Source of the DNA: Escherichia coli 042
Lineage (GTDB): Bacteria > Pseudomonadota > Gammaproteobacteria > Enterobacterales > Enterobacteriaceae
Assembly: GCF_000027125.1 (NCBI RefSeq)
Contig: NC_017626.1
DNA: 64,000 nucleotides
Strand: one strand, 5' to 3'
The position numbers were made by a program, and so were the translations under genes. Position 1 is the first letter of the stretch. Each line of letters begins with the position of its first letter. The notes under the pieces are model-generated. The model was given only the letters and a program-made list of their open reading frames with translations. It searched no databases and had not been told where the DNA came from. Below, piece by piece: positions 15,187 to 16,973 of this stretch.

Positions 15187-15446
15187 GGTGTTTCCTCACC
15201 TTGCTCTTCCTGCTGGTGATAAACCAGCGACACCGCCAGCACGCCCTCTACGTTGCGTACTGACTCAATGATTTGGATCAGCGTTTCGCTGTCTTCTGCT
15301 TCCACCACCACAATCAACTGACCGCTCGGCGCGTCGCTGACAGCAACTTCACAGCCGGGAAAGGCGTTCAGTTGGGTGCTGATGTCTGAAATTCGTTCGC
15401 TTTTGGCCTGCACGACCAGGCTGCAAACTTGCCAGTTAGTGTGCAT
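15183..15446 (-). CDS. napD: NapA chaperone NapD
   Basis: 87 aa, ATGA overlap with napA start. Confidence 0.85.
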
Positions 15447-15930
15447 GGAGATACTCCGCAGTTATGGCTGATACCGGACAGCTGGCTGCACATGCTCCAC
15501 ATCCGTTGCAAAGTTGGCTATTAAGTTGCGGCTGGTAGATCCCGGAGAGCGTCGGGCGAAAGATAATTGCCATTGGCTCACAGCTATCCTGACAGCGGCG
15601 GCATTCAACTGACTGATACGCCAGGCACGCGTCCCCAATGGTGAACTGCAAATCCCAGGCCCTGGTGTGGCGCGGAGAAAATAGCGATTCGGGGCAAGCC
15701 TGCGCGCAGGCGTAACAGAAGCTGCACTCGTTATTTTTGAAGTTAACGCTCGGATAGCCGCCCGCGCCGCGTTGCAGAATGTTGTTTTCACAAGCATTAA
15801 TACAGGCGTCGCAGCGAGTGCAATGGGTCAGAAAATGAGATTCATCACCGGACCAGGGCGGACGGATACCGTTACTGGCTTTGCGCCAGCGACCAGTGAG
15901 TATGCCCCGACGGGATGCATCAATCTTCAC
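15436..15930 (-). CDS. napF: Ferredoxin-type protein NapF
   Basis: 164 aa with multiple CxxCxxCxxxCP iron-sulfur motifs; first gene of nap operon. Confidence 0.9.
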   Translation of the reverse strand: MKIDASRRGILTGRWRKASNGIRPPWSGDESHFLTHCTRCDACINACENNILQRGAGGYPSVNFKNNECSFCYACAQACPESLFSPRHTRAWDLQFTIGDACLAYQSVECRRCQDSCEPMAIIFRPTLSGIYQPQLNSQLCNGCGACAASCPVSAITAEYLHAH

Positions 15931-16043
15931 ATTGACCTTCCATCATTAACGCGCTCTGAAAATTGAGAGCGACCAAATAAACCGCATAATTAATAAGCCA
16001 TTTTTATAGCCGCTAAGATATTAAAGGATGTGTCAAAGATGCA

Positions 16044-16059
16044 TACCCCGATCGGGGTA
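16044..16059. promoter_or_regulatory. NarP/NarL 7-2-7 heptamer pair upstream of napF
   Basis: Perfect 16-bp palindrome TACCCCG-AT-CGGGGTA about 120 bp upstream of napF start codon; matches the NarL/NarP heptamer pattern TACYYMT in 7-2-7 arrangement. Confidence 0.6.
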
Positions 16060-16064
16060 AAACC

Positions 16065-16078
16065 TGTAGCAGGATCAA
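16065..16078. promoter_or_regulatory. Candidate FNR site in napF promoter
   Basis: tgtag-cagg-ATCAA, one good FNR half-site, centred 20 bp upstream (relative to napF) of the NarP palindrome centre, consistent with the reported -64.5/-44.5 arrangement. Confidence 0.4.
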
Positions 16079-16337
16079 AAGAGTGGCGGGAAGCGTGGCA
16101 AAAACGGGCTTTTGCTCACATTTCAAATGGTTATAAACATACTTATATAGCGATTAATTCACCAGAGATATTTATGTCGGTTTGTTCTCTCACCAGAATT
16201 TAACACTAAAAGAGCAGGTAAAATTGTCTGAATGTTCTTTAAGTTATTCATAAAGCAAATTAATAAATCTGATGAATATGTTAACCTTCAGCGACATCAT
16301 CGGTGAAAACCTATAAATGAAGAAGGAAAGCAAAAAA

Positions 16338-16826
16338 ATGAAGACCATTCTACCTGCAGTATTGTTTGCCGCTTTCGCCACCACTTCCGCCTGGGCGGCA
16401 GAAAGCGTCCAGCCACTGGAAAAAATCGCGCCTTATCCACAAGCTGAAAAAGGCATGAAGCGTCAGGTGATTCAGTTAACCCCGCAAGAAGATGAATCTA
16501 CCCTGAAAGTAGAACTGTTAATCGGCCAGACGCTGGAAGTCGATTGCAATTTGCATCGTCTCGGCGGGAAGCTGGAAAGCAAAACGCTGGAAGGCTGGGG
16601 CTATGATTATTACGTCTTTGATAAAGTTAGCTCGCCGGTTTCCACGATGATGGCCTGCCCGGATGGCAAGAAAGAGAAGAAATTTGTCACCGCGTATCTG
16701 GGCGATGCCGGAATGCTGCGTTATAACAGCAAGCTGCCGATCGTGGTGTATACGCCAGACAATGTGGATGTGAAGTACCGCATCTGGAAGGCGGAAGAGA
16801 AAATTGACAACGCGGTAGTTCGCTAA
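16338..16826 (+). CDS. eco: Ecotin, periplasmic serine protease inhibitor
   Basis: Start set at [13 protein letters not shown] (162 aa) with signal peptide; upstream in-frame ATG of track ORF judged not the true start. Confidence 0.9.
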
Positions 16827-16849: not shown

Positions 16850-16973
16850 GTAGGTCGGATAAGGCGGTCACGCCGCATCCGACATCTAACGCCCGAGCCG
16901 GTTGACTGATGCGACGCTGACGCGTCTTATCTGCATATGCCACATCCGGCATACCATGCCGGATGTGGCATAT
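16850..16973. repeat. REP-like palindromes plus 18-bp perfect inverted-repeat hairpin between convergent eco and mqo
   Basis: gtaggtcggataaggcggtcacgccgcatccgac (REP-like) and atatgccacatccggcat-acc-atgccggatgtggcatat perfect hairpin at 16935..16973. Confidence 0.6.

Follow-up and report, generated by a model that had tools for sequence, protein, structure and literature searches.

FNR and NarP sites upstream of napF in Escherichia coli: a known control region in which the FNR site lies farther from the promoter than the NarP palindrome

Introduction

What controls transcription of napF in the 64,000-nucleotide stretch of Escherichia coli 042 DNA that we analyzed (hereafter "the window"), and is the arrangement of regulator sites upstream of this gene one that has already been described? 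The question was raised by an original prediction made from the bare sequence, which had called the 407 bp at 15931-16337 the napF control region. It had pointed out a perfect inverted pair of NarP-type heptamers with an FNR half-site centered exactly 20 bp further upstream, taken this to be the class II FNR plus NarP arrangement reported for napF, and proposed that the same region also serves the divergent gene eco.

The napF (aeg-46.5) control region has reportedly been studied by Choe and Reznikoff in 1993, Darwin and Stewart in 1995, Darwin et al. in 1998, McNicholas and Gunsalus in 2002, and Stewart et al. in 2003 and again in 2009. In E. coli K-12, FNR and phosphorylated NarP induce napF while phosphorylated NarL prevents the binding of phosphorylated NarP, and a fusion spanning -85 to +19 retains this regulation (PMC9262595). 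Here we describe which of these regulatory elements are found in the window, how they are placed relative to each other and to the predicted promoter, and how well they are conserved among relatives of E. coli.

Results

The region is the napF–eco intergenic region and matches K-12 through the core sites

At their left end, the 407 bp adjoin napF (15436..15930, minus strand; 164 aa with a GTG start), the first gene of napFDAGHBC according to the list of open reading frames and the RefSeq annotation of strain 118UI and K-12 MG1655, and the list of open reading frames shows napD and napA following on the same strand. On the right lies eco, encoding ecotin (16338..16826, plus strand; ATG at 16338), as given by the list of open reading frames and the RefSeq annotation of K-12. 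The annotated gene order in both 118UI and K-12 MG1655 is napA-napD-napF, then yojO or a "hypothetical protein", then eco, mqo, and yojI. Across the 407 bp, the window is 100% identical to 118UI, a urinary isolate, and of 5426 complete E. coli genomes, 5421 have a single, chromosomal match to the region, located between napF and eco.

K-12 MG1655 has the same neighbors here (napF, yojO, and eco), and its alignment with the window shows no difference between a point inside napF and about 16137, all nine differences falling at 16138-16194. The K-12 napF control region is the same locus: counted from the napF start, the -10 region, the NarP palindrome, the FNR half-site, and a Crp-like element are all K-12 sequence base for base, at 100% identity. 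Within the species, a 90-bp core at 15996-16085 is at least 99% identical in 4947 of the 5421 genomes, while the whole 407 bp reach this level in 228. [quoted passage not shown] The identification as napF control region made in the original prediction is borne out by the identity to K-12 and by the annotation of the flanking genes.

A NarP/NarL palindrome with perfect symmetry and imperfect heptamers

The 16 bp at 16044-16059, TACCCCGATCGGGGTA, read TACCCCG-AT-CGGGGTA and equal their own reverse complement. We verified this directly because the repeat search, run with a 10-nt minimum, omits the 16-bp palindrome. The element covers the bases 114-129 upstream of the start codon of napF, and its center at 16051.5 is at -44.5 from the predicted transcription start at 16007. 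It is built like the 7-2-7 sites of fdnG, nirB, nrfA, and yeaR, i.e., from inverted heptamers of the TACYYMT type around a 2-bp spacer. As a NarL/NarP-type site, it agrees with the published 7-2-7 site of napF at -40 to -49 (PMC4549865) and with a list of four genes for which 7-2-7 sites have been reported, napF being one of them and NarP binding to no other arrangement (PMC2718512). The word "perfect" in the original prediction is correct for the dyad symmetry but not for the heptamers, since TACCCCG matches the TACYYMT consensus at six of seven positions (G for T at position 7). Against the full consensus TACYYMT-NN-AKRRGTA, the napF site consequently scores two mismatches, with G/C instead of T/A at position 7 of each heptamer.

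A different role of the palindrome as a terminator hairpin was considered and rejected, given that it is not followed by a T-run on either strand and that no terminator call was made at this position. A GATC sequence, the site of Dam methylation, occupies its exact center (16050-16053, within CGATCG). This GATC is lost in Citrobacter and Leclercia, where the central bases read CAATTG, CGATTG, or CCATTG, so any effect of methylation would be specific to Escherichia.

A weak FNR site exactly 20 bp upstream of the palindrome

The ATCAA half-site noted in the original prediction lies at 16074..16078 on the plus strand. Read on the napF strand, positions 16078-16065 form TTGATCCTGCTACA, i.e., TTGAT-CCTG-CTACA, with a perfect TTGAT half-site, a 4-bp spacer, and a weak second half. 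FNR promoters of both class I and class II share the TTGAT half-site in a 14-bp TTGAT-N4-ATCAA geometry as well as anaerobic activation, and the napF element matches this consensus weakly at seven of ten positions (TTGAT perfect, CTACA two of five). Its center at 16071.5 is exactly 20.0 bp from the center of the NarP palindrome at 16051.5, just as had been predicted.

Could the palindrome and the half-site be chance features without function in the strain of the window? Counts of consensus mismatches over the 64 kb give this idea some room. Both sites are found by such scans, but the excess over chance is weak: 64 kb should contain around one perfect 16-bp palindrome by chance (four in the window versus 1.1 +/- 1.0 in shuffled sequences), the 7-2-7 consensus at up to two mismatches has four matches versus 2.5-6.7 expected, and the FNR consensus at up to three mismatches has 342 versus 245 expected, so that matches to the two consensus motifs are un-enriched or mildly enriched. 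The other three perfect 16-bp palindromes of the window lie at 2867 (CAGTTTTTAAAAACTG), 3142 (GTGGATGATCATCCAC), and 5759 (GATATTCATGAATATC). The sole sharp statistic is that of the spacing, with a chance of approximately 0.5% for an FNR-like match at the pre-specified distance of +20 bp (about 0.005 matches per position).

Against a chance origin stands, first of all, that the window carries the very sequence of the K-12 region that has been dissected by experiment. We further assume a shift of 1978 bp between version 2 and version 3 of the K-12 coordinates, which would place the center of the FNR site at about 2301660.5, 9-15 bp from a published ChIP peak. This in vivo occupancy by FNR was reported by ChIP-seq (MOSAiCS) and ChIP-chip at 2301669/2301675 (U00096.2 coordinates) and assigned to napF/yojO, with a weak PatSer PWM score (ln p = -5.37) and a requirement for NarP as co-activator (PMC3688515).

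Sites and spacing are invariant across three genera

A NapF scan of representative genomes yielded orthologous loci from two Escherichia species, E. coli and E. albertii, from four Citrobacter, and from Leclercia, and we aligned the upstream regions of eight sequences from these three genera. Upstream of the leader, the invariant runs of at least five columns are 16014-16022 (AATATCTTA, the -10 region), 16025-16033 (ACACATCCT), 16041-16049 and 16056-16061 (outer portions of both NarP heptamers), and 16073-16078 (TTGATC). All five columns of TTGAT are invariant, and there is no insertion or deletion between the FNR half-site and either the NarP site or the -10 region, whereas the flanking intergenic DNA has diverged to 0.59-0.71 identity and contains indels.

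Within the 7-2-7 site, 13 of the 16 columns are invariant and the changes fall on degenerate or central positions, partly in a symmetric manner. E. coli O157:H7 and E. albertii carry TACCTCG, which is still within TACYYMT, and two Citrobacter sequences have CAATTG in place of CGATCG, a symmetric change that leaves the dyad intact. Judging from the alignment, this is variation of the kind that a dimer site would tolerate. The invariance of sites and spacing in three genera next to diverging flanks effectively refutes the idea of chance features, which we regard as the least probable of all readings considered here. Given the identity to K-12, the conservation, and the published experiments, the sites are confirmed as real even though sequence statistics alone are weak. 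Previous work predicted control of nap by FNR and NarP in ten gamma-proteobacterial genomes (PMC1805755).

Two overlapping candidate promoters place FNR outside the class II position

The position of the transcription start can be inferred from the geometry of the NarP site: 44.5 bp downstream of 16051.5 lies 16007, where the minus strand has an A, making A16007 the predicted +1 of napF. This start would give a leader of 77 nt (15931..16007, minus strand) with an invariant Shine-Dalgarno sequence, GGAAGG. A candidate -10 element of the major promoter P1, TATCTT at 16015..16020 (minus strand; -13..-8 from 16007), sits inside the invariant run 16014-16022. It overlaps, at an offset of 3 nt, with TAATAT at 16018..16023 (minus strand), the candidate -10 of a minor promoter P2 with a predicted start at about 16010. 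While TATCTT is invariant across the genera, TAATAT is less conserved and changes to AAATAT in Citrobacter and Leclercia and to TTATAT in E. coli MFDS1006657. The names P1 and P2 are those of Stewart et al. (2003), who are said to have described a major P1 activated by Fnr at -64.5 and phospho-NarP at -44.5 and a P2 that starts ca. 3 nt upstream, is weakly activated by Fnr, and is inhibited by both NarP and NarL. The overlapping hexamers fit this account of two promoters. The napF promoter was not found by a generic sigma-70 scan, as is expected for a promoter that depends on activators, though this is no positive evidence for it.

Class II activation by FNR means a site near -41.5 that overlaps the -35 region. 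At napF, FNR is instead centered at -64.5 or -61.5 from the predicted starts at 16007 and 16010, respectively, and it is NarP that takes -44.5 or -41.5. The label of class II in the original prediction hence does not hold, although its description of the arrangement was right in placing FNR upstream of NarP at a distance of 20 bp; the known napF arrangement is an unconventional one. Retaining the label would require FNR to act from about -41.5 on a promoter starting near 16030 and the NarP palindrome to lie downstream at around -21.5. Only the wording of the original prediction speaks for such a configuration, and a perfect TTGACA at 16036..16031 on the napF strand demonstrates that other promoter-like pieces are nearby. 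However, the positions of -44.5 and -64.5 given in that same prediction contradict it, and the -10 element for such a promoter would have to lie at about 16037-16042, where the sequence is GCATCT, while the invariant -10-like block sits at 16014-22 instead. The TTGACA is also not conserved and has become TAACAC or AAACAC in Citrobacter. Finally, the 7-2-7 site is published as an activating site at -40 to -49 (PMC4549865), but a site at -21.5 would repress. All in all, we consider class II activation by FNR highly improbable at this promoter.

With FNR upstream and NarP closest to the polymerase at about -44.5, napF reverses the order of activators known from two other promoters. The genes nirB and nrfA have FNR in the class II position of -41.5, with the 7-2-7 site farther upstream, near -70. 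The FNR position of -64.5 also misses the -61.5 of canonical class I promoters by 3 bp, and the site falls at -61.5 only when counted from the minor start P2.

The leader itself shows no significant fold compared to shuffled sequences (z = -0.10), alifold support for a conserved structure is weak, and Rfam has no match in 15931-16337 at permissive thresholds. A riboswitch or attenuator in the napF leader was therefore rejected, with neither the z-score nor a convincing conserved structure speaking for it. Inside the leader, on the plus strand and pointing towards yojO and eco, lies a sigma-70-like TTGAGA-16-CATAAT (15963-15990; 10/12), which is the sole match of the generic promoter scan in the region (one found, 1.4 expected).

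The annotated gene yojO overlaps the NarP and FNR sites

Between napF and eco, K-12 and many RefSeq E. coli genomes have an annotated 54-codon open reading frame on the plus strand, yojO (b4604; 16039..16203), which is a "hypothetical protein" in 118UI. It overlaps the NarP and FNR sites such that codons 2-14 are these very sites read on the opposite strand. This raises the possibility that 16039-16080 are conserved because these codons encode a protein and not because regulators bind there. The broad annotation is in line with this idea, as is the similarity of the N-terminal peptide HTPIGVKPVAGSKE across genera. However, only 15-20 codons of the reading frame are left in relatives: the stop comes after 20 codons for E. 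albertii and another E. coli and after 15-16 codons for three of four Citrobacter sequences and for Leclercia, where GTG has replaced ATG. For C. werkmanii, our script found no match to the yojO start. The nine substitutions between the window and K-12 cause seven amino-acid changes, and the conservation does not respect the borders of the reading frame, since it extends past its start into the -10 region (16014-33) outside yojO and stops where the known sites stop. Conserved protein coding thus seems very unlikely as the source of the conservation. Based on the truncation in relatives and on the seven amino-acid changes from nine substitutions, the conserved "N-terminus" of yojO is best explained as regulatory DNA, and yojO is probably not a conserved gene.

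An invariant 9-mer in the promoter spacer

None of the published sites that we placed accounts for the invariant 9-mer ACACATCCT (16025..16033, minus strand), which lies in the promoter spacer at -18..-26, upstream of the -10 element and downstream of the NarP site. It is conserved as strongly as the NarP and FNR sites in the alignment of eight sequences, and the divergent E. coli MFDS1006657 shows one change (T to A). The TTGACA described above adjoins this 9-mer, is mispositioned for either -10 element, and is not conserved outside Escherichia. Beyond FNR, NarP, and NarL, nap is activated by ModE and repressed by IscR (PMC8139620). Comparing the type-2 motif of IscR to 16005-16035 by eye gave a poor and ambiguous match, and no site was assigned. 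We tentatively raise the idea, which we ourselves find rather doubtful, that ACACATCCT could be a separate determinant, either as part of the IscR operator reported for napF or as a DNA feature needed for the unconventional co-activation from -64.5 and -44.5, a lesser part of this proposal being that yojO is an annotation artefact arising from conserved regulatory DNA.

Crp-like and ModE-like elements further upstream

Two additional elements lie upstream of the FNR site and, like yojO, had no place in the original prediction. A Crp-like site, AAATGTGAGCAAAAGCCCGTTT (16102..16123, minus strand; center 16112.5, about -105.5), has a perfect left half, TGTGA, and a weak right half. Its mean identity is 0.88 in Escherichia and Citrobacter, and it is absent in Leclercia. 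In 2009, Stewart et al. reportedly described a site for Crp at napF that is located upstream of those for Fnr and NarP. Beyond it follows a ModE-like operator, CGCTATATAAGTATGTTTATAACC (16129..16152, minus strand; center 16140.5, about -133.5), in which CG(C/T)TATATAA...T(T/A)TATAAC is conserved in Escherichia and Citrobacter. Read as CGCTATATAAGTATGTTTATAAC at 16130-16152, it is conserved in these two genera and absent in Leclercia. We take ModE operators to consist of paired repeats of the TATAT/TAYAT type flanked by CG..., to be conserved upstream of molybdoenzyme operons, and to be located at -133.5 at napF. Two of the nine differences to K-12, at 16138 and 16142, fall into the center of this element, which reads CGCTATATAAGTATGTTTATAAC in the window versus ...AAATATATTT... 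in K-12 and O157:H7, while the other seven are found at 16156-16194.

Leclercia keeps only the core of FNR site, NarP site, and promoter, and upstream of it the Crp-like and ModE-like sites as well as eco have been replaced. In a Leclercia adecarboxylata MAG, a tRNA-Arg(TCT) gene (L009 1167-1243) is found ca. 257 bp upstream of napF.

The eco side of the region

The suggested second role of the region in serving eco is only a positional inference from the divergent gene adjoining it, and no eco promoter was identified. Annotated starts of eco differ between ATG 16317 (169 aa) in 118UI and ATG 16338 (162 aa) in K-12. The sequence ATGAAGAC at 16338 is invariant across species and preceded by a conserved Shine-Dalgarno sequence, AAGGAA, whereas the in-frame ATG 16317 is not conserved, which favors 16338 as the start of eco. 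Upstream of the gene, Escherichia and Citrobacter share a conserved block, ATTAATA..(G/A)AATATG(T/C)TAACCT (16259-16287, plus strand), which is a candidate promoter or operator of eco, with no clear -35 or -10 element. Downstream of eco, the Rfam search returned a sub-threshold match to naRNA4/CssrE on both strands at 16853-16890 (33.7 bits versus a gathering score of 59.5), which in all likelihood is a palindromic element of the REP type.

Discussion

The napF control region of the window is confirmed as a real, correctly located, and in detail already known feature. For the mechanism that we propose, the architecture comes from sequence identity and conservation and the biochemistry from the literature. 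Under anaerobiosis, FNR would occupy its weak site, TTGATCCTGCTACA, at about -64.5, and in the presence of nitrate or nitrite a dimer of phospho-NarP would bind the 7-2-7 palindrome, TACCCCGATCGGGGTA, at about -44.5. The two regulators would then jointly activate a promoter with a poor -35 element and TATCTT as its -10, starting near A16007 on the minus strand. Phospho-NarL would compete for the same palindrome and antagonize NarP, so that nap would be expressed only at low nitrate. Relative to the second, overlapping promoter, which starts 3 nt upstream and has TAATAT as its -10, the FNR and NarP sites would be at -61.5 and -41.5. The Crp-like site (about -105.5) and the ModE-like operator (about -133.5), both farther upstream, may add inputs from carbon source and molybdate.

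The FNR site illustrates how such elements can be recognized: motif statistics alone would miss it, and it is the combination of conservation with published ChIP data that identifies it. As a discovery, our finding carries little weight. What it means for annotation is that yojO should be flagged, as it is most likely conserved regulatory DNA and not a gene. The napF control region, a textbook case of co-regulation by FNR, NarP, and NarL since the 1990s, is carried unchanged in the window.
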